A stretch of DNA of 64,000 bases from an uncultured Defluviitaleaceae bacterium (GCA_964468805.1 CAYXWM010000004.1:969-64968), one strand, 5' to 3'; numbered from the stretch's first letter, positions 2,379 through 59,640 are shown. A program made the numbers and translations. The notes: generated by a model not told the origin, from the letters alone.

Positions 2379-3749
2379 TTGATGAATAAAAATGTTTTTG
2401 CAATGCTTACACTGATTTTCATTTTACTGCTTTCGGTTGCCACTTTTGCGAGCTCGGAACAACAAACATACACAGACGATCGCGGCAACAAAATTGAGTT
2501 TATTCAAGGCGAAAAATCTTTTGCTACAAAAGTAGTTGAATTTACACCCGGTTCTCCTTGGACAAGAATGAAACAGTCAATGGATCCAAACAAAATATTA
2601 GGTTCGCCGGATTATAATAGCTCCGATGATACAGGGAGCATCACTTTGGGCAGTGAGGGTGTAATCGTAATCGAATTTGGTGACGTGGAGTTTAGCGATG
2701 GGCCCGGAGACGATATTTATGTCTTTGAAGTTGGTCCTGATGTTGAAGCCACAAAAGTTGAAGTTAGTAAAGATTTAGTTGAATGGATTTATGTTGGAGA
2801 TGCAAAAGGCTCGTTATGCTCTGTTGATATGGCTGGCAAAGTTGATGCAGATGCAACATTTAAATATATTCGCATAACAGACCTTGTACCGGTAAGCAGT
2901 GGCACTTGGCCCGGTGCAGACATAGATGCAGTGGGCGTTATTAACGCAAGTATTATACTAAGCCAAGAACCGACACCCACAGCAACACTAACGCCGGCAC
3001 CGACAGCAGCACCCGCACCAAGCACCGGCAGTGAAATCAGCGGGTTTAAAGGTGAAAGCATTTCTTCCGGTGCTAAGCTTTGGTGGAACCCTGTTAGAGG
3101 CGGCGTTGGCTACAGAGTTTTCAGAAGCACCAACCGGTCTGACGAGGGCATTTCGGCAACTGACTTTTACATTACAAGCAACGAGTTTGTTGACGTTAAC
3201 GTGGACGCAAACAAGACTTATTATTACACTGTGCGTCAGGTATTAAAAGAGGCGCGCCCTTTTGAAGGTTTGAAGGAAGAGTTGGGTCCTGTAACCGCAA
3301 AAGTTACGGTAAAAACCGGCTCAACTATACTGGGAGGCAACGCCTCAGATTCTCCGGCGCCCAAGCAGTTTATTTTGATGACGCTGGATGACCCATATAT
3401 GAGCGTTAACGGCGTTAGGGAAGAAATAGACCCGGGCCGAGGCACAACGCCACTTATTTTAAACAGCCGCACAATGGTGCCTATTCGTGCTATTGTAGAG
3501 GCAATGGACGGCAGAGTAGCCTGGAATGATTCCACAAGAAAAATCACATTAAACTACAAAAACCAAGCCGTTGTAATGACGCTTAATGAGAAAAGCATAA
3601 CGGTTAACGGCTCATCAAAAACTATCGACGTTGCACCTACCGTTATAAATTCACGCACAATGGTTCCTATCCGTTTTGCGGCAGAAAATTTGGGTTGCGA
3701 GGTTGACTGGATTAATTCAACAAGGCAAATCGTAATTGTTTTCAGATAA
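2379..3749 (+). CDS. Secreted protein paralog: unrelated beta-sandwich-like N-terminal head, Pro/Thr/Ala linker, then the same Fn3-like + stalk module as the upstream gene
   Basis: AAGGAG at 2366-2371, with TTG at 2379 or ATG at 2382 as start. Signal peptide MNKNVFAMLTLIFILLLSVATFA. The C-terminal ~230 aa is near-identical to ORF 325..2328. Confidence 0.8.
   Translation: MMNKNVFAMLTLIFILLLSVATFASSEQQTYTDDRGNKIEFIQGEKSFATKVVEFTPGSPWTRMKQSMDPNKILGSPDYNSSDDTGSITLGSEGVIVIEFGDVEFSDGPGDDIYVFEVGPDVEATKVEVSKDLVEWIYVGDAKGSLCSVDMAGKVDADATFKYIRITDLVPVSSGTWPGADIDAVGVINASIILSQEPTPTATLTPAPTAAPAPSTGSEISGFKGESISSGAKLWWNPVRGGVGYRVFRSTNRSDEGISATDFYITSNEFVDVNVDANKTYYYTVRQVLKEARPFEGLKEELGPVTAKVTVKTGSTILGGNASDSPAPKQFILMTLDDPYMSVNGVREEIDPGRGTTPLILNSRTMVPIRAIVEAMDGRVAWNDSTRKITLNYKNQAVVMTLNEKSITVNGSSKTIDVAPTVINSRTMVPIRFAAENLGCEVDWINSTRQIVIVFR
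3051..3746 (+). repeat. Copy 2 of the ~696 bp direct repeat
   Basis: See 1627..2322. Confidence 0.95.
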
Positions 3750-3911
3750 GTTTATGTATAAAGCCCATCAAGAGGAAATCGGATAGATATAACTTAGGTA
3801 TAGAACAAAGCAACAAAAGAACACAAGTAGCTGTTTAAAATGACTTTATTGCTGATACCCTAGTTATCGTCTTAGTATTCTCACAGAACCTGTTAGAAAG
3901 GACTAGAAACA

Positions 3912-4692: not shown

Positions 4693-6030
4693 TTAATGTT
4701 GTGACATATATTTTCCGCACCAACATATTGCACCACCTCTTGGGCCATATCTCACTGTATAGTGCTCCTGACGAGGTGCCTTCGTTGTAGAGGGTGTAGG
4801 TCTAGGTGTCGGCGTAGGTCTAGGTGTTGATGTGGGTGTGGGTCTAGGTGTTGATGTGGGGGTTGGTGTCGATGTAGGGGTGGGCGTAGGTGTAGGTCTA
4901 GGTGTCGATGTAGGTGTTGGCGTAGGTGTAGGTCTAGGTGTCGATGTAGGTGTCGGCGTTTGTTGCGTTGGTGCTTTCGGCAATTCGTTATACTTGATAT
5001 TATCAAATGTTAAAATGCTTTGCTGTCTTGTGTAGTTTGATTTCGGGCTGAACGTCGGTGGGGTAACTGTCATGCCGGACATGATTCCGTGTTTGCGGAC
5101 AAAATTGATACCGGGAACCGACCAACCTGATGCCGTGTTTAAGTCTGTGAAATCGGATGTGGGAGAATTTTCAATGTTCGCGCCGTAGGCTCTGCAAGTG
5201 TACATGACCATTACCGCCGCCTGTTCACGGTCCAACCGGCTGTTAGGGTCGAAAATGCCGGGAGCTGTGGCTGAGGGCGCTACTCTACCGCTCGTTATTC
5301 CAAGAGCATAAGCGGCCAGTATCGCGGAGTCGTTTGTATCGCTAAAAGCGTTCGTGTTACGTGATAATCCTTTTTCGGACAGCACTGTATCTATGCTCTT
5401 GTCTGTAGCATATTCAAGCCAAGCAACCGCCAAACGGCAAAACTCTGCGCGGGTTATTACATTGGTGTAATTGTTTTGTATATCAGTAGGAACAAAACCA
5501 TTTGCCAATGCGCTTGTGATACCGGCACGCGCCCAATCGCTTGCACTATCGATGGGGTCGGGCAGCACAGTGTTAGACGCTCCTACGGTATACGCCGGGG
5601 ATTTTGCTATTTGTCCTAAAGTGTCGCCATTCGTATTTACAGCATATACAATAAAAACGTACTCTCCGGGTTCCTTTGTATAAGCGGATATATCGGCTGT
5701 CGCCAAAAGGCTGTTCCCAATATTCGCGCTTTCCACTGACCATGAGTTATTTACATAGCTACCGTTACGAAACAAACGAATTTGGTAAGAATAGCTAAAC
5801 GCATCCTCATAAGTTGACCGGCTATTGACATTTGGGGTTTGCACGTTGAAGCTGATTTTTCCGCCTGCTTCATCAACCCATTTGAGATTATAGGGGGTGT
5901 AGTTGTCGCCGTTGGAACCGGTGAACACTTTCGCTTGGGCGAGCAGTTCCTCGTTTGCGAACGTGGGGATTGCTGTAGCCGCTAACATAGTGACGCAGAG
6001 CAACATTGCTAATAGTTTTGTGATTCTCAT
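4693..6030 (-). CDS. Secreted cell-surface protein with three SLH-like repeats and a Pro/Thr-rich repeat tail
   Basis: AAGGAGG lies 7-8 nt upstream of the ATG. Signal peptide MRITKLLAMLLCVTMLAATAIPTFA. SLH-like segments SDWARAGITSALANGFVP..ITRAEF, FSDTNDSAILAAYALGITSG.., FTDLNTASGWSVPGINFVRKHGIMSG. Short C-terminal tail with a CWCG motif. Confidence 0.8.
   Translation of the reverse strand: MRITKLLAMLLCVTMLAATAIPTFANEELLAQAKVFTGSNGDNYTPYNLKWVDEAGGKISFNVQTPNVNSRSTYEDAFSYSYQIRLFRNGSYVNNSWSVESANIGNSLLATADISAYTKEPGEYVFIVYAVNTNGDTLGQIAKSPAYTVGASNTVLPDPIDSASDWARAGITSALANGFVPTDIQNNYTNVITRAEFCRLAVAWLEYATDKSIDTVLSEKGLSRNTNAFSDTNDSAILAAYALGITSGRVAPSATAPGIFDPNSRLDREQAAVMVMYTCRAYGANIENSPTSDFTDLNTASGWSVPGINFVRKHGIMSGMTVTPPTFSPKSNYTRQQSILTFDNIKYNELPKAPTQQTPTPTSTPRPTPTPTPTSTPRPTPTPTPTSTPTPTSTPRPTPTSTPRPTPTPRPTPSTTKAPRQEHYTVRYGPRGGAICWCGKYMSQH
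4790..4962 (-). repeat. Imperfect tandem repeat encoding a (T/S)P(T/R)P linker (unit about 36 nt, TPTPTSTPRPTP)
   Basis: Repeated GGTGTAGGTCTAGGTGTCGATGTAGGTGT.. blocks, which also generate the spurious ORFs 4752..5006 and 4832..5035. Confidence 0.85.
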
Positions 6031-29356: not shown

Positions 29357-29965
29357 GTGGAATTAAAATTCAACAAACACGGTCTTATACCGACCATAGT
29401 TCAGGACAGCACAAGCGGTAAGGTTTTAATGATGGCTTACATGAATAAGGAGTCTTTGGACAAAACTTTGGAAACCGGGCAGACTTATTTTTGGAGCCGC
29501 AGCCGTAATGAATTATGGCATAAGGGCAAGACTTCGGGACATTTCCAAAATGTGGTTGATATACAGTATGATTGTGATGAAGATTGCCTTTTGATTTTGG
29601 TTGAACAAATAGGCATGGCCTGCCATACCGGTACGGAAAGCTGTTTCTTCCGCAGCATGAAAGGCGAAACACCCATGTCCCCCAAAGGCTCCGTGCTGGA
29701 TGAAATTATTAAGGTAGTAAGGGAACGCAAGCAAAAACCCATTGAAGGTTCTTACACCAACTACCTTTTTGATAAGGGCATAGATAAAATGCTTAAAAAG
29801 GTAGGCGAGGAAGCCGCCGAGGTTATAATAGCCTCCAAAAACGAAGAAAAAGAATTTATAGCCGAAGAAATAGGCGATCTGCTCTATCATTTAAGCGTGG
29901 TTTTGGTTGAAAGAGATATGGATTGGTCGGAAGTATTTACCGTGTTGGGTAAACGCCGTAAGTAA
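29357..29965 (+). CDS. hisI: Bifunctional phosphoribosyl-AMP cyclohydrolase / phosphoribosyl-ATP pyrophosphatase
   Basis: [49 protein letters not shown] (HisI) plus [27 protein letters not shown] (HisE). GTG at 29357 lies 8 nt after GGAG. The track start at 29324 would overlap hisF. Confidence 0.9.
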
Positions 29966-30131
29966 TTTAAAAAATTTCGACATTTGGAATAGAACAGGCA
30001 ATTTATTTTCAAGCCCTCATAGAATAGATTATATTAATCCGGCATTTTGACAGAGTGTAGATTTACGGCGGAAGCGTCGTTACGTCTAATCACAGCCGGA
30101 CTATATCAATCTGTTCCGGAGGTGTTTGTCA

Positions 30132-30293
30132 ATGAATAACCCAAACCATTACGAACATCACCATCAACATTCCAATGACAATACTATGATGTTGTTAATG
30201 ATGATGATGATAATGAACCCAATGATGTTCGGCGGAGATAATTCCATGATGTTTCTGCTGTTACTTATGATGATGATGAACGAAGGAAGATAA
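30132..30293 (+). CDS. 53-aa His-rich / extremely Met-rich hydrophobic peptide (hypothetical)
   Basis: GGAGGTG lies 7 nt upstream of the ATG. Translation is MNNPNHYEHHHQHSNDNTMMLLMMMMIMNPMMFGGDNSMMFLLLLMMMMNEGR. A strong terminator follows 22 nt after the stop. Not in the ORF track (under 60 aa). Confidence 0.5.
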   Translation: MNNPNHYEHHHQHSNDNTMMLLMMMMIMNPMMFGGDNSMMFLLLLMMMMNEGR

Positions 30294-30314
30294 TCCGGAG
30301 TACATAAAGCAAAG

Positions 30315-30341
30315 CCCCTGTGCAGACACAGGGGTTTTTTG
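30315..30341 (+). terminator. Rho-independent terminator
   Basis: CCCCTGTG-CAGA-CACAGGGG followed by TTTTTTG. Confidence 0.85.
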
Positions 30342-30446
30342 TATTAAACCGTTTTTTTAAAAGAACGGATTTTACAGTAATTCTACAAAATAGACGAATA
30401 TAAATTCGTCTATATAATTTTAATGTAGATTTACTTAACAGTTTTA

Positions 30447-30536
30447 ATACCATATAAGTTGAGATACAGAAATAATTGTTTTTTCTTGAACCGTTGAAAA
30501 AAATCTACTATTTTTGTCCTCTGTTTAAAATGGAAT
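30447..30536 (+). repeat. Rep-A copy C
   Basis: Diverged 5' half and conserved 3' half. Its terminus provides the last codons and the TGA stop of the convergent gene 30536..31615. Confidence 0.85.
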
Positions 30537-31615
30537 CAGTGTACTTTATTTAATATGGACTGTAACTTTTCAATCAGCAGTTCGTTATCTTTTTCCGTAC
30601 CTATGCATATTCTGAAAAAGCTGTTGTCCAGAAACGGGAAACTGTCGGCGTTTCTTATGAGTATGCCTTCTTTTATGAGCAGGTCAAAGAGGATTTGGGC
30701 GTTTAGAGTTGGGTTAAGAATTTTTATCAGAATAAAGTTGGAATAGGATTCGTAATATTTAACTGAGCTTATTTTCTCCAAGGCGGAGCATATTTTTTCC
30801 CGTTGTTGGGCGATGAAGGTTTTGGTTTTGTTTATAAATTGTGTATCTTTAAACATAGACTCTCCGGCAAGAGTGCTTAGGGTGCTTACCGACCAGGGAT
30901 CCTTTACTTTTTCGGCTGTTTCCAATACTTTTTCGTCGGAACAAAGCCCGTAACCCAATCTCAGGCCGGGCACGCCGAAAAATTTTGAAGTGCCTCGGAT
31001 TATGAATAAATTCTTATGCTTTTCAATTAAAGGACAGGCTGAAACATCCTCCGAAAATTCCGCATAGGTTTCGTCTATCATAACAAAAATGTTGTTTTCC
31101 TTACAGCGGTTGATGATGGTTTCCAGGTCTTCTAAAGGAATTGCGGTGCCGGTAGGGTTGTTGGGGTTGCAGATAACCAGCAGATTAATTTCCTCTGATA
31201 GGATAGGCAATAAGTTATTTAAATTAAGCCGGAAATTATCCTCCTCGAGCAAGGGAAACAATACAAAAGTACCACCGTTGTTACTGACCGCCCGCTCGTA
31301 TTCCGAGTATGCCGGTGAAATAATCAGTGCCTTTTTTCCGCTGTATAAATTCATAACCAAGGAAATCAGCTCTGTTGAGCCGTTACCTACAATAATATTG
31401 TCCGCAGATACCCCGGTATAATTTCCTATGGCTTGTCGCAGTTTTAAGTATTTGGCATCCGGGTAACGGGTTATGGCGGTTACGTTGTCTATTATGGAAT
31501 TTATAATACGCTCCGGCGGAGCCAGAGGGTTGATATTTCCGCTGAAATCTTTTATTTCGCTTGTCTTGATGCCGTATAGTCTTTCGGCTTCGTCTAAATT
31601 TCCTCCGTGTTGCAT
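30536..31615 (-). CDS. Class I/II PLP-dependent aminotransferase family (threonine-phosphate decarboxylase CobD-like / HisC-like)
   Basis: N-terminal MQHGGNLDEAERLYGIK..IKDFSGNINPLAPP is typical of the CobD/HisC subgroup. Also NPNNPTG and the ..SKFFGVPGLRLGY Lys motif. Confidence 0.8.
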   Translation of the reverse strand: MQHGGNLDEAERLYGIKTSEIKDFSGNINPLAPPERIINSIIDNVTAITRYPDAKYLKLRQAIGNYTGVSADNIIVGNGSTELISLVMNLYSGKKALIISPAYSEYERAVSNNGGTFVLFPLLEEDNFRLNLNNLLPILSEEINLLVICNPNNPTGTAIPLEDLETIINRCKENNIFVMIDETYAEFSEDVSACPLIEKHKNLFIIRGTSKFFGVPGLRLGYGLCSDEKVLETAEKVKDPWSVSTLSTLAGESMFKDTQFINKTKTFIAQQREKICSALEKISSVKYYESYSNFILIKILNPTLNAQILFDLLIKEGILIRNADSFPFLDNSFFRICIGTEKDNELLIEKLQSILNKVH

Positions 31616-33593: not shown

Positions 33594-35780
33594 TTATTCA
33601 TCTAACTCAAATTGTTTTTTCTTTTTGATTTTTTTTCTGATGATAATAAAGGTGACCACGCCGCCGCCTACTACTATCACTGCGTATACTGTCCACATTA
33701 TGGGGCTGAAGAAGTCGAAGCCTTCTCCGGGCATACCGGGCATACCGTCGGGACCCATGGGCATACCGTCAGGTCCTATGGGCATACCGTCTGGACCAAT
33801 CATCATACCGTCCGGACCCATCATTCCTTCGCCGCCACCACCCATATCCATAACGTTAACCATAAATTCTTTGGTGACTTCCTTAACCGCACCTACTTCG
33901 TCCTCATAGGTTATTAAAACCTTGCCTTCGTGTTGACCGGGTTCAAGGGCGGTAATTTCCGCATCATAGTATCCGGAGCTGTAGCGGTTCATGGTTCCGA
34001 AGTATACAAAGGAACGGCTGGTGTCGAAGTTACCTTCTACCTTAACGGAGAGGTTGTTTAATGCTGATTTACCTTGGTTCATAATGCTGAAATCAATGGT
34101 AAAGGGAGAGCCTATGAAAACTTCCGGGGGTACGTTTACAACGGAGGTTTCCAGCTTGGTAGTTTGCTTTACGGTAATACCGATGATTTCTTTTTCTTCG
34201 TATTCGTTAAACTTTGCATCTTCGTATTTGAAGTTAACTTCCATGGTGTAGGTTCTGGGTTGAGCGTCCGGAATGGCATACATTTTAAAATTCTTAGCCG
34301 CAGTACCTCCTGGAGCAATGGTATCTATATAAAAGGTATTGGAACCGTCCACGGGCATAAAGGTATTGCCTTTGGCTTCGGGAGAAGTATCCGTGGGAGC
34401 AACCAAGACAGCCTTTATGTTGTCTATACGTTTTTCTTTGTGAGTATTGCGGAAAACAGCGTAAAGACTAAATTCTTGACCGGCTTCAACTATTTGAGGG
34501 TCTGTATAGTAGCTTTCGATAATGATTTTGGGTTTGCTGACCTTGTCTTTTTCTTTGTCATCTTTGTCTTCGTCTTCGTCGGCTTTTTTGTTTCGAACAT
34601 TAACGCCGGCGTATTGTTCAAAGGTTAAAATTTCTTTGGTGTCGTCGTCTTTTAAAAGCCCCGATTCGTACTCAACCTTAAAGTTGATAACGTAGTTTTG
34701 AGAACGGGATTTGGACGTGGGAGCAAAGGTAAAGCTTAGTCCTTTGGTTTGATTAACACCCAATTCGCTTATCATTACAACATTGGTGGATTTGGGAACC
34801 ACAGCACCGTCAGTATCTGTTACGGCGGTTACTTTAACGTTTTTTACGGTGTTGGAGCCGTTGTTGTTTACGTTTAAACTCACGGTAAAATTTTGCCCTA
34901 CTTCATAAGTACCGGTGGGAGCGGAAATTGAGCTTATAGTAACATAACCGGGCTTTTCGGAGGTGCCTTTTGTATCAACGTTTGCATAGTAAACAAAGGA
35001 ATTTTCATGAACCGTATCTGTATAGTCTTTATACTTTATTTTAAAGGTAATGGGATAGGAACCCGATTTAACCTTGGATGAAGTTTTAAAGGTATAGGAA
35101 ACGGGAGTTTTTAACAAGGCTCTGTATTCTTTAAAATATAAGCTGTCGGAGTTTCCGGTAAAGAAAATAGTATCCGAGCCTAAACCCTCAAGGGTGATTC
35201 TCAGGTCTTTCAGACCTAATCTTGATGTATTTTCCAAGACACCGGTTACGGTAAATTGGTCGTTGGTAGTAAGCACCTGTTTCACAGACCTTAAATCATA
35301 AAGCAAAACAGAGGGTGCTGCTGCACTTACTTCAACCTTAATATTTATTTTATCGCTTTCCGAAAGGTTATCACCGTCTGTATTTCTGTAAAAATGGGAA
35401 AGATTAACGGTATAGGTTCCGGCTTTGGCGTTTTTGTCTACGGTAACTTGCAGTTTTACGGTCTTTGTGGAACCTTCGCTAAAGGTTCTTACGGAATTTG
35501 AACTGTCCAAAAATTCAAGGCTCAAAGGAGCGCCGGTGTCTGCTATGGCTTGCATTAAGAAGCGTTCCGCGGAGGAAGTACCCACGTTGCGAACGCTCAA
35601 GTCCAAAACTTTTGTTTCACCGCTGCCCACGGTGTAGTTTGTTTGACTTACCAACTTTATTCTGGGAGCGGCAACCGGTTCGGGTTCGGGAGGAATATAG
35701 TCTGCAAAGGCAACAACCGAACCCAGACTAAGAAATAGGACTGCTGTAATTAAAAAGCAAATGTGTCTGATGTGTTTCAT
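33594..35780 (-). CDS. Secreted, C-terminally membrane-anchored protein built of repeated CARDB/COG1361-like beta-sandwich domains
   Basis: Signal peptide ..SVVAFA. At least 5 repeats of the pattern G(E/S)T..L.(L/F)...N.G...A..V. GPDGMP repeats, a TM helix and an RKKIKKKK tail at the C-terminus. GAGGGG RBS. Confidence 0.75.
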   Translation of the reverse strand: MKHIRHICFLITAVLFLSLGSVVAFADYIPPEPEPVAAPRIKLVSQTNYTVGSGETKVLDLSVRNVGTSSAERFLMQAIADTGAPLSLEFLDSSNSVRTFSEGSTKTVKLQVTVDKNAKAGTYTVNLSHFYRNTDGDNLSESDKINIKVEVSAAAPSVLLYDLRSVKQVLTTNDQFTVTGVLENTSRLGLKDLRITLEGLGSDTIFFTGNSDSLYFKEYRALLKTPVSYTFKTSSKVKSGSYPITFKIKYKDYTDTVHENSFVYYANVDTKGTSEKPGYVTISSISAPTGTYEVGQNFTVSLNVNNNGSNTVKNVKVTAVTDTDGAVVPKSTNVVMISELGVNQTKGLSFTFAPTSKSRSQNYVINFKVEYESGLLKDDDTKEILTFEQYAGVNVRNKKADEDEDKDDKEKDKVSKPKIIIESYYTDPQIVEAGQEFSLYAVFRNTHKEKRIDNIKAVLVAPTDTSPEAKGNTFMPVDGSNTFYIDTIAPGGTAAKNFKMYAIPDAQPRTYTMEVNFKYEDAKFNEYEEKEIIGITVKQTTKLETSVVNVPPEVFIGSPFTIDFSIMNQGKSALNNLSVKVEGNFDTSRSFVYFGTMNRYSSGYYDAEITALEPGQHEGKVLITYEDEVGAVKEVTKEFMVNVMDMGGGGEGMMGPDGMMIGPDGMPIGPDGMPMGPDGMPGMPGEGFDFFSPIMWTVYAVIVVGGGVVTFIIIRKKIKKKKQFELDE
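33728..33835 (-). repeat. 21-nt tandem repeat encoding GPDGM(P/I/M) units
   Basis: CATGGGCATACCGTC(A/G/T)GG(A/T)CC-type units repeated about 5 times. Confidence 0.85.
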
Positions 35781-47692: not shown

Positions 47693-48664
47693 GTGAAATT
47701 ATTGCAGAAATTCAGTAGGAACTTGCGTATTTTTGGGGTTATGATATTGGTGTTTTTGTCAGCTTATATTGTAATGATCTTCGTATCCAAAAATAACAAC
47801 GGTTCTACAGAGAAAATTTTGGTTAATGTATATTTTCTAAACCCCTTAACAAATCGTATCGAACCGGAACTGCATTATGTGGAAACCGGCGAAAACAAAG
47901 AAATAGCCACCAAAGTCCTAAAAATGCTCTTTGAAGGTCCCACCGGCTCTAAACTGGTAAAAACCGTAAATGACAAGGTGGAATTCATAGACGGCAGAAT
48001 AGTCAACGACTCGGTTCTTGAAATAGAATTTTCCGAAAACTACAATAATATGAGTCCCTTGGAAGAACTTTTTTTCCGTGGCTCTCTGGTCTGGACTATG
48101 ACAGATCTGGAATTTATCCAGGATATACACATTTACGTTAACGGTCGGGAACTGTTGACCCAAGCCGGAAAACCCATGGGTCTACAAAACCGCAAAAACG
48201 TCATTATCCATACCAATATACCTCCGGAACCGCTAAACCATCGTACCGTCAAGCTGTATTTCATAAAAGAAGGTACGGGCACTTTGGCAACGGAAACCAG
48301 AACGGTTAGGGTTAAAGACTTGCCCATAGAGGCATATATAGTAGAAGAACTCATAACCGGCCCAACAACCCAAGGTCTCTTACCCACCCTACCCCAAGGC
48401 ACCAAAGTTAGGGAAGTCAAAACAGACGAGGGTATTTGCTATCTGAATCTAAGTGCGGAATTTATAAACAAACAATCCGGCATAACCGGGGATCAAAATC
48501 TTACCATATATTCCATAGTAAACTCCCTGACCGAATTAAGCTCCGTGAAAAAAGTACAATTCCTAATAGAATCCGAAAAGCCCCAATACGTAGAAGGCGA
48601 ATTTGACCTTTCCAAACCTCTGGAGAAAAACACGGATATTGTGGATAAAGTGGATAAACCATAA
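47693..48664 (+). CDS. GerMN-domain lipoprotein-like protein
   Basis: Two GerMN-like repeats (..VNVYFLNPLTNRIEPE..ATKVLKMLFEGP.. and ..VKLYFIKEGTGTLATETR..AYIVEELITGP..). N-terminal TM. Confidence 0.75.
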   Translation: MKLLQKFSRNLRIFGVMILVFLSAYIVMIFVSKNNNGSTEKILVNVYFLNPLTNRIEPELHYVETGENKEIATKVLKMLFEGPTGSKLVKTVNDKVEFIDGRIVNDSVLEIEFSENYNNMSPLEELFFRGSLVWTMTDLEFIQDIHIYVNGRELLTQAGKPMGLQNRKNVIIHTNIPPEPLNHRTVKLYFIKEGTGTLATETRTVRVKDLPIEAYIVEELITGPTTQGLLPTLPQGTKVREVKTDEGICYLNLSAEFINKQSGITGDQNLTIYSIVNSLTELSSVKKVQFLIESEKPQYVEGEFDLSKPLEKNTDIVDKVDKP

Positions 48665-55053: not shown

Positions 55054-55206
55054 ATGTCCAATCAAGAAATTCGCTGCAACGTTCACAATTGTAAATTCAA
55101 TGACAAGGCTAACTACTGCACACTTAACAGTATCGTTGTGGGCTCTGAAACCGCCAACGCTTGCAAAAAATGTGATACTGAATGTGTAAGCTTTGAACAA
55201 GAATAA
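55054..55206 (+). CDS. DUF1540-like Cys-rich small protein
   Basis: AAAGGAGGTG RBS. Translation is MSNQEIRCNVHNCKFNDKANYCTLNSIVVGSETANACKKCDTECVSFEQE. The CxVxxCxF..xxCxLxxIxV pattern is as in DUF1540. Confidence 0.55.
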   Translation: MSNQEIRCNVHNCKFNDKANYCTLNSIVVGSETANACKKCDTECVSFEQE

Positions 55207-58000: not shown

Positions 58001-58180
58001 AATGCAAATAAACTCTTATCTACAAGCATAATATATAGAAAAAATTCAAGGATTATAGAGGTCGGAAATGGTTCCCGACGCACTCTGAGCAAGAATACCT
58101 GAGATGCCGGATACACCGACCATCCTTTAATCCCAACTTGATAAAAGGCACTTGCAGAAATGCAGGTGCTTTTTTGTTTG
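58001..58180 (+). ncRNA. Candidate small RNA / orphan leader with its own promoter and terminator
   Basis: Promoter TTGTAA (57966-57971), 17 nt including TGT, TAAAAT (57989-57994). No credible ORF. Internal mutually exclusive pairings. Terminator GGCACTTGCA-GAAA-TGCAGGTGCT plus TTTTTTGTTTGGTTTTT at 58146-58180. gdhA has a separate promoter downstream. Confidence 0.4.

Positions 58181-58287: not shown

Positions 58288-59640
<1,353 letters not shown>

Follow-up and report, generated by a model that had tools for sequence, protein, structure and literature searches.

A family of methionine-rich micro-proteins with a putative mother-cell promoter in Defluviitaleaceae-like Clostridia

SpoVM and CmpA of Bacillus subtilis are micro-proteins of 26-37 residues that are encoded by stand-alone genes with a mother-cell promoter and form a helix at the outer forespore membrane or the coat base. 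Firmicutes also encode the YjcZ sporulation peptides (presumably those modelled by TIGR01732), lineage-specific products of about 50 residues with glycine-rich flanks and a very hydrophobic core, the function of which is poorly understood. Here we describe a further micro-protein gene from the Defluviitaleaceae, a little-studied group of anaerobes that live in digesters and termite guts. The gene lies in a 64,000-nucleotide stretch of DNA from an uncultured member of that family (CAYXWM010000004.1:969-64968), the whole of which is referred to as the window. The open reading frame (ORF) at 30132..30293 (+) encodes a 53-residue methionine- and leucine-rich peptide (MNNPNHYEHHHQHSNDNTMMLLMMMMIMNPMMFGGDNSMMFLLLLMMMMNEGR), with a predicted helix-loop-helix structure, and is very probably a genuine protein-coding gene, kept by selection, that represents a new family. 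Gene calling often overlooks small proteins as a matter of course, and the family is an example of this.

The resemblance to SpoVM and CmpA lies in the tiny stand-alone gene, the putative mother-cell promoter and the hydrophobic helix, features that would suit a structural or assembly peptide rather than an enzyme. SpoVM, however, forms a single amphipathic helix, whereas the family has two uniformly hydrophobic methionine/leucine helices and a glycine-rich loop; there is no sequence similarity, and the type of sigma factor is here suggested by resemblance of the promoter. The YjcZ peptides are comparable in size and hydrophobicity but carry one segment of about 17 residues rich in isoleucine, leucine and valine, with essentially no methionine, and a search of NCBIfam with six family members (E <= 10) gave no match, the YjcZ model included. 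In working style the SpoVM/CmpA-type micro-proteins and the YjcZ peptides would be the closest described systems, and the family belongs to neither.

The methionine content invites comparison with proteins of other kinds. In the ectodomain and the transmembrane helix 2 MxxxM motif of Ctr1, in CusF, PcoE/SilE and CopC/PcoC, methionine thioethers are clustered with histidine, and the N-terminal M-H-H-M-D-like patch of the family is similar in this respect. The methionines of these copper proteins are, however, spaced and solvent-exposed within larger proteins, to which the family has no homology, and there are no copper genes in its vicinity in the 10 contexts tabulated. Yeast Pbp1 has a redox-sensitive, methionine-rich low-complexity domain, and oxidation of its methionines can switch self-association. 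In the M domain of SRP54/Ffh, methionine-rich helices provide a flexible hydrophobic surface (PMC12648545). Both are domains of large soluble proteins, whereas the methionine/leucine helices make up nearly the whole of the micro-protein, which is linked to the SRP54 domain neither by homology nor by genomic context.

The micro-protein gene and the evidence for its translation

An earlier note, made from the sequence of the window, had drawn attention to the ORF as a self-contained translated unit that is not a leader, and most of its description of the locus has held. The reading frame and its translation are exactly as given there. The ribosome-binding site GGAGGTG at 30118-30124 (+) was read from the sequence and is separated from the ATG by 7 nt; a TTG two codons 5' of this ATG was rejected as the start codon because the ribosome-binding site would be too near. 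The terminator scan agrees with the predicted intrinsic terminator at 30311..30340 (+), which consists of a stem at 30315-30334 (CCCCTGTG/CACAGGGG) closed by the loop CAGA and of a run of six T at 30335-30340; the stem begins 22 nt beyond the stop codon, and the scan of the ORF region returned three terminator-like sites against 0.4 expected. The genes hisF and hisIE lie upstream, and downstream a CobD/HisC-like aminotransferase gene at 30536..31615 (-) is convergent with the micro-protein gene, again as predicted. The gene has a promoter of its own, described below, and is present in a single copy within the window. The methionine count given earlier was too high, since 16 rather than 21 of the 53 residues are methionine (30%, whereas the long ORFs of the window average 2.5%).

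The closest genome, found via HisIE (89% identity, the next best being 61%), is that of an uncultured Defluviitaleaceae metagenome-assembled genome (MAG), L001. It holds the ORF in the syntenic place, flanked by hisIE and the convergent aminotransferase gene, where it has been left uncalled. The two peptides are identical at 48 of 53 residues with no insertion or deletion. At the DNA level 13.5 of 20.7 synonymous sites differ (proportion of synonymous differences, pS, 0.65) but only 6.5 of 138.3 non-synonymous sites (pN 0.047; Nei-Gojobori counts), and the neighbouring hisIE compares at a pS of 0.48 and a pN of 0.058. The other two frames of the same DNA contain 15 and 3 stop codons and show no synonymous bias. 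Within subfamily A of the family described below the pattern recurs, with a pS of 0.58-0.73 and a pN of 0.10-0.14. Since the frame is kept with a strong synonymous excess, the gene is both coding and under purifying selection. The terminator of L001 occupies the same position with a different stem sequence, and the DNA beyond it is not conserved between the two genomes. An ORF of this kind is absent from the other 79 hisIE loci.

The runs of ATG codons had been suspected of being prone to slippage, and a comparison of their length between strains had been proposed. Slippage was not supported: the runs have no insertions or deletions relative to L001, and identical micro-protein sequences recur in three samples. 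The repeat itself is 31 nt long and imperfect, with 78% matches (Tandem Repeats Finder).

The family and its predicted protein architecture

The ORF belongs to a family of about 40 divergent relatives in metagenomes, mostly from the termite gut. An exact-product lookup for the window peptide found no called gene, the peptide on its own had no match in a word-indexed protein search, and phmmer with the same peptide returned a single match among 1.84 billion representatives (P0001, E = 2.5e-4); gene callers thus usually miss the family. The relatives were reached through the DNA of metagenome contigs with a pattern that demanded an ATG run, FGG and a second ATG run. The matches listed were mostly poly-Met, poly-Asp and poly-His repeats, which were filtered by script, and among them were at least nine uncalled small ORFs with the family layout. 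Each of these has its own ribosome-binding site and terminator, features outside the search pattern. With profiles made from these ORFs, 31 called proteins (P0001-P0031) came to light at E-values down to 1e-14, all labelled hypothetical and with Defluviitaleaceae MAGs from termite-gut samples as the labelled source. Only about 30 members are found among 5.8 billion predicted proteins.

The members measure 46-59 residues (about 50 in general), consist of about 30% methionine and fall into some six subfamilies with mutual identities of 40-60%. Every member with available upstream sequence has a ribosome-binding site, GGAGG or GAGGT, 5-9 nt from the ATG, and most are trailed by a GC-rich hairpin and T-run of their own. 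The family matched nothing in Pfam, NCBIfam, PHROGs, PADLOC, PDB sequences or plasmids, nor in a back-translation search of viral contigs with N-terminal patterns only. It is previously undescribed in the libraries searched, and so far has been encountered only in Defluviitaleaceae-like Clostridia.

The N-terminus of the family is polar, begins MNP.. or MNNP.. and contains one to six histidines. The earlier note had treated a histidine cluster as a defining feature; across the family only one to three of these residues are conserved, and the run HYEHHHQH is an expansion specific to the lineage of the window. Two hydrophobic segments follow, predicted helices of three turns that are each preceded by an Asn/Asp-Pro/Ser/Thr cap. 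In the window peptide they are TMMLLMMMMIM (residues 18-28) and MMFLLLLMMMM (39-49), of 11 residues each, and they are separated by a loop of the form P-G-x-F-G-G-(D/M)-x-N. The protein ends in a short tail of Gly, Lys and Arg (GGK(L/M)F or GGR). Met20, Met26, Met39, Met46, Met47, Gly34 and Gly35 are at least 90% conserved; Phe33 is invariant in an 11-sequence alignment, and Asn37 and the caps are conserved as well.

Methionine makes up 53-61% of the helices, followed by leucine (27-28%), phenylalanine (5-9%), isoleucine (4-6%) and valine (about 1%), with no alanine, glycine or serine. Leucine has six codons and methionine one, so that the methionine level kept across divergent sequences suggests selection for methionine itself. 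A methionine content of 30% is an extreme composition, and its retention under selection in lineages that have diverged argues for the thioether chemistry itself, or for the flexible methionine side chain, as the selected property.

The earlier note had pictured a two-helix hairpin in the membrane, and of this proposal the two helices joined by a loop are supported by prediction while the two-span topology is not supported. An AlphaFold2 model from 21 sequences places the helices at residues 15-28 and 38-49 with a loop between them (predicted local distance difference test score, pLDDT, 64). The hydrophobic runs measure 9-12 residues in 26 of 27 members, with two first segments of 7 residues and one member with a single run; at 1.5 Å per helical residue a run is about 15 Å long, or half a bilayer. 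Insertion of the best 19-residue windows is predicted to cost +1.2 to +5.3 kcal/mol by a simple position-independent Hessa sum with approximate scale values, none being favourable, and their Kyte-Doolittle means are 1.35-1.88. Helices that are too short to span the membrane and hydrophobic on every face would have to be buried in some other way. They could oligomerise, lie in one leaflet or at an interface, or form a single discontinuous span that is broken mid-way by the polar GGDNS. The N-terminal tail is acidic or neutral and the only Lys or Arg residues are near the C-terminus, a charge pattern that is compatible with an N-out/C-in orientation and proves nothing.

Some longer proteins share elements of this architecture. 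Locus L105 encodes a 99-residue relative (1606-1905 of the reverse-complemented locus, minus strand) with three methionine-rich segments rather than two; its N-terminus is rich in Cys, His and Pro, its C-terminus is extended by a charged stretch, and it looks internally duplicated. Proteins of 200-490 residues at L117, L120, L134, L146, L152, L194, L124 and L173 carry Met/Gly-rich tails with motifs also found in the micro-protein, namely MNPMM(L/F)MMM, FGG(D/N) and MMMMSQMFGG, and Pfam and PHROG assign these larger proteins to no informative family. One of them has an N-terminal domain that is 57% identical to an unannotated ORF (MT835469 49826-50182) of a 176-kb gut bacteriophage, so that poly-Met/FGG modules appear to occur also as tails of phage proteins. 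As a lead to the function of the micro-protein they were rejected, the phage proteins being without assigned function.

The conserved promoter and a possible role in sporulation

The earlier note had missed both the existence of the family and its conserved promoter, which resembles those of sporulation genes. In the 14 members inspected the promoter reads (G/A)ACA(A/G/T)GCA(A/C/T)(T/C)-N15/16-CATA(A/G/T)(A/G/T)(A/G)T and lies 30-105 nt upstream of the ATG. In the window its upstream box TAGAACAGGCA at 29990..30000 (+), identical in L001, combines a SpoIIID-like element with a 'GCA' at -35, and the -10 box CATAGAAT at 30018..30025 (+), of a type resembling that of mother-cell sigma factors, follows 17 nt past this GCA. 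The core (G/A)ACA(A/G/T)GC is kept in 12 of the 14 promoters, being weak in L104 and L092, and the CATA is invariant in all 14. About 60 nt around the boxes are nearly identical between the window and L001, a conservation that exceeds that of the coding DNA. A strict composite motif, ACAnGCA-N17/18-CATAnnAT, has 12 matches in 1.27 Mb scanned, and each of these is directly upstream of a family member. The conserved box is also a handle for finding co-regulated genes.

CATA-type -10 boxes are a hallmark of mother-cell sigma factors. In Clostridioides difficile, sigmaK promoters follow xACA-N16/17-CATA(G/T)(T/A)AT, with CATAGTAT and CATATAAT among the -10 boxes of sigmaK and sigmaE (PMC3789822, Table S7), and sigmaE promoters have ATA at -35 (PMC3789822). 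The CD0896 promoter in that table ('TAGCAAAAT...CATAGTAT') has the same GCA-N17-CATA geometry as the family promoter. Both CD0896 and CD1063.2 share the AGCA, although GC at -35 occurs in only 2 of the 23 C. difficile sigmaK promoters listed. Between the C of GC(A) and the CATA there are 18 nt, or 19 nt in three members, which is the long edge of the 16-18 nt range, and in some family promoters an ATA is found just 14 nt from the CATA. The upstream box resembles the binding sites of SpoIIID, for which the B. subtilis consensus is TAGGACAAGC (quoted in PMC11180830) and the C. difficile consensus KRTAACARK (PMC5025042). Read purely as a resemblance, the former is matched at 8 of 10 positions in the window, 9 in L208 and 5-8 in the other members, and the latter at 8 of 9 positions in the window. 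Forespore promoter lists differ from the family promoter, and readings as a sigmaH, sigmaD, sigmaF or sigmaG promoter were rejected for lack of the spacing or of key bases. Owing to the CATA -10 box together with the SpoIIID-like upstream box, expression in the mother cell is the best reading, and we infer a promoter of the sporulation mother-cell type, with a -10 box like those of sigmaK and sigmaE promoters and a SpoIIID-like box over the -35.

The account that we favour, at a probability of roughly 0.4, is that of a mother-cell peptide that self-associates near the outer forespore membrane or coat and in which a dense thioether surface is selected. The micro-protein would be made in the mother cell while the spore forms, and its methionine/leucine helices would be buried by self-association, or in one leaflet or at the interface of the coat or the outer forespore membrane. 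Its many thioethers would provide a matrix that is both hydrophobic and flexible, and this matrix could also absorb oxidants, as Met is converted to Met sulfoxide, or soft metal ions, two possibilities that the earlier note had raised. The parts of this account differ in strength. Sporulation-specific expression stands at about even odds. A role of the peptide in the envelope, or in antioxidant or metal handling, is a good deal more doubtful and is put forward tentatively. The boldest version, a new component of the spore envelope or membrane surface in which poly-Met oligomers surround the developing spores of strict anaerobes as a renewable oxidant sink or as a trap for Cu(I)/Ag(I), is rather a long shot. 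Reversible methionine oxidation might in addition make the assembly alternate between a cohesive and a dispersed form; a methionine-based protective or redox-switch matrix of that kind is not known from other bacterial systems.

In favour of the mother-cell account, cultured Defluviitalea forms terminal spores (PMC5817277). Several observations weigh against it. The family promoters have a G at -35 where sigmaK promoters have an A, their spacer of 17-18 nt is at the long end, and the -10 box holds TAnnAT, which sigmaA holoenzyme could use together with an activator. The assignment to a sigma factor is one of resemblance, a position weight matrix made from the family promoters detects no second site in the window, and the annotation of the window contains no clear sporulation gene and none with a known sigma-factor dependence. 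The confidence of the AlphaFold2 model is modest, the scale values behind the insertion energies are approximate, and the envelope role and the thioether chemistry are conjectures drawn from composition. The phyletic range is narrow and the function inferred; the striking composition and the clean regulatory signature are the strengths of the case. If the promoter reading is true, the family would be a lineage-specific addition to the spore-formation programme of the Defluviitaleaceae and would offer a simple, synthesisable peptide for methionine-based antioxidant or soft-metal functions.

Gene neighbourhoods, rival explanations and other features of the window

Neighbourhoods were tabulated for 10 contexts, including the window and L001, and they are kept within subfamilies and not between them. 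In the window and L001 the gene has hisIE on one side and cobD on the other; in subfamily A it is accompanied by a divergent Cys-rich ORF and a signal peptidase gene; in subfamily B it follows an Exo_endo_phos gene; and in subfamily F it lies one or two genes past the ATP synthase operon. The conserved neighbours of subfamilies A and B belong to no informative family. None of the 10 contexts has a co-directional downstream gene or a sporulation gene adjoining the family member, and no transporter, modifying enzyme or copper gene is shared across them. Each copy of the family is a monocistronic stand-alone unit, and as nothing is shared across the contexts, the leader-peptide, modified-peptide and operon-partner readings are removed. 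The Cys-rich ORF of subfamily A (52 residues, 46 in L205; MDINCVSDCAYQQEGKCALTEL…) is found at 5710..5868 (-) in L202 and also in L190 and L203-L205. It runs divergently from the micro-protein gene, with a conserved TTTGTACTATTTT between the two, and has no family match.

A promoter that contains a sigmaA-like hexamer could also drive, without any specificity for sporulation, a small hydrophobic protein that sits at the membrane and modulates a larger complex, as many small membrane proteins of bacteria do, with the housekeeping sigma factor and a dedicated activator at the GACAnGCAAT box. The TAGAAT, TATAAT or TAAAAT within the -10 box agree with the sigmaA hexamer TATAAT in 5-6 of the 6 bases, the upstream box is found only at family genes, as expected for a dedicated regulator, and the lack of adjacent sporulation genes fits as well. 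This is nonetheless unlikely, because sigmaA does not require the CA that precedes the TA in all 14 promoters, no sigmaA-like -35 element lies at 16-18 nt, GACA being ruled out at 23 nt upstream of the hexamer, and the modulator would have hydrophobic segments below the length of a transmembrane helix and no conserved partner gene. The copper chemistry of the methionine-rich proteins mentioned at the outset suggests a different function, in which an N-terminal His/Met patch captures Cu(I) or Ag(I) and a methionine-lined oligomer holds or passes the ion in the manner of Ctr1 or of the methionine-rich copper proteins of the periplasm. Near the N-terminus M-H-H-M-(D/E) is kept in subfamily A, and H-M-P or HH in the others, particular methionine positions are kept rather than mere hydrophobicity despite the six codons of leucine, and the acidic or neutral N-terminal tail with its sole basic residue near the C-terminus would suit an N-out/C-in peptide. 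Against this, the family lacks sequence or profile similarity to the copper proteins of Pfam, NCBIfam and PDB, copA, copZ and csoR are absent from the vicinity in the 10 contexts, and the promoter has no obvious operator of the CsoR or CopY type. Known Mets motifs, moreover, are exposed MxxM or MxxxM repeats and not contiguous hydrophobic helices, and we consider a copper-binding or -conducting micro-protein improbable.

Type I toxins and leader peptides resemble the micro-protein in their short ORF with its own ribosome-binding site and a terminator directly after it, and in being hydrophobic or rich in one codon; the family differs from them in that no antisense partner and no gene to attenuate were found and in being conserved as a protein across subfamilies. 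For a small hydrophobic toxin restrained by an antisense RNA, one could also cite the intergenic location, the structured leader and one subfamily member that adjoins a HicA/HicB pair. Such a toxin is very improbable, however, given purifying selection across subfamilies of 40-50% identity, syntenic orthologues within lineages and a single copy in the 64 kb. No antisense promoter adjoins the ORF, as the sole minus-strand site in 29800-30700 lies inside cobD (30687-30660); the flank past the terminator is not conserved with L001; and the peptide is without a single 20-residue transmembrane segment and without a basic tail. Size, an internal Gly-Gly and a MacB-type ATP-binding cassette (ABC) transporter 1.7 kb off in the window are what would be expected if the product were a precursor from which a secreted or modified peptide is made, be it a bacteriocin, a ribosomally synthesised and post-translationally modified peptide or a signal peptide. 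The chance of this is slight: the transporter is on the opposite strand and missing from the other contexts, no conserved modifying enzyme, C39 peptidase or immunity gene lies nearby, and the peptide has neither a double-glycine leader consensus nor a signal sequence. Lastly, runs of one codon followed by a terminator might indicate no protein at all but a leader or attenuator that senses Met-tRNA, or an open non-coding ATG microsatellite, and the earlier note had considered a methionine-dependent translational sensor. That proposal fell, since a downstream co-directional gene is absent here, where the next gene is convergent as in L001, and from the other nine contexts. With synonymous-biased changes, conserved non-methionine residues, a lack of length polymorphism and no Rfam match on the other side, we regard a non-coding origin as next to negligible.

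Between the promoter and the ORF a small leader hairpin, ACGGCG-GAAG-CGTCGT at 30065..30080 (+), is identical in L001 and present in both minimum-free-energy folds. Counterparts with other GC sequences, which are found in subfamily A, occupy the same place after AACGGCG in L106, L202, L205 and L190. Folding of the leader gave no significant overall structure (z = -1.6 and -0.6), and the hairpin, being near the predicted 5' end, would fit an mRNA-stabilising 5' stem-loop. A 30-residue leader ORF with a TTG start at 30047..30139 (+) stops 5 nt into the main ORF; it has a counterpart in L001 but was rejected, having no ribosome-binding site and a protein sequence that is not conserved between the two, and is probably not translated. 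A perfect TTGACA at 30047-30052 was likewise rejected as part of a promoter, there being no usable -10 at 16-18 nt. Rfam searches at gathering and E-value thresholds found nothing in the micro-protein region, S-box and T-box included. In L001 the hisIE stop codon and the conserved promoter are further apart than in the window by about 118 bases (3643-3760), and these include a hairpin (GAGGGAAACTTTT…AAAAGTTTCCCTC), absent from the window, that might act as terminator of the his operon.

At 55054..55206 (+) lies the gene of a small DUF1540 protein rich in Cys (Pfam E = 6e-11), followed by a terminator. The gene is preceded by GAATA-N17-GGGATTATAATA, which resembles a forespore promoter of the sigmaF/G type and hints that the organism uses canonical sporulation promoters.

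Another methionine-containing repeat is found at 33594..35780 (-), where a gene between those of a MacB-type ABC permease and an ATPase encodes a 728-residue NPCBM_assoc/CARDB protein with a Met/Pro/Gly-rich repeat (…GMMGPDGMMIGPDGMPIGPDGMPMGPDGMP…). A protein with two GerMN ('Germane') domains is encoded at 47693..48664 (+), directly after a WalRK-like two-component system, a layout reminiscent of LpqB with MtrAB. Finally, the window contains a full-length match to the skipping-rope RNA (RF02924) at 58051-58132 (+), scoring 52 bits against a gathering threshold of 36.7, about 170 nt 5' of the glutamate dehydrogenase gene at 58300..59640.

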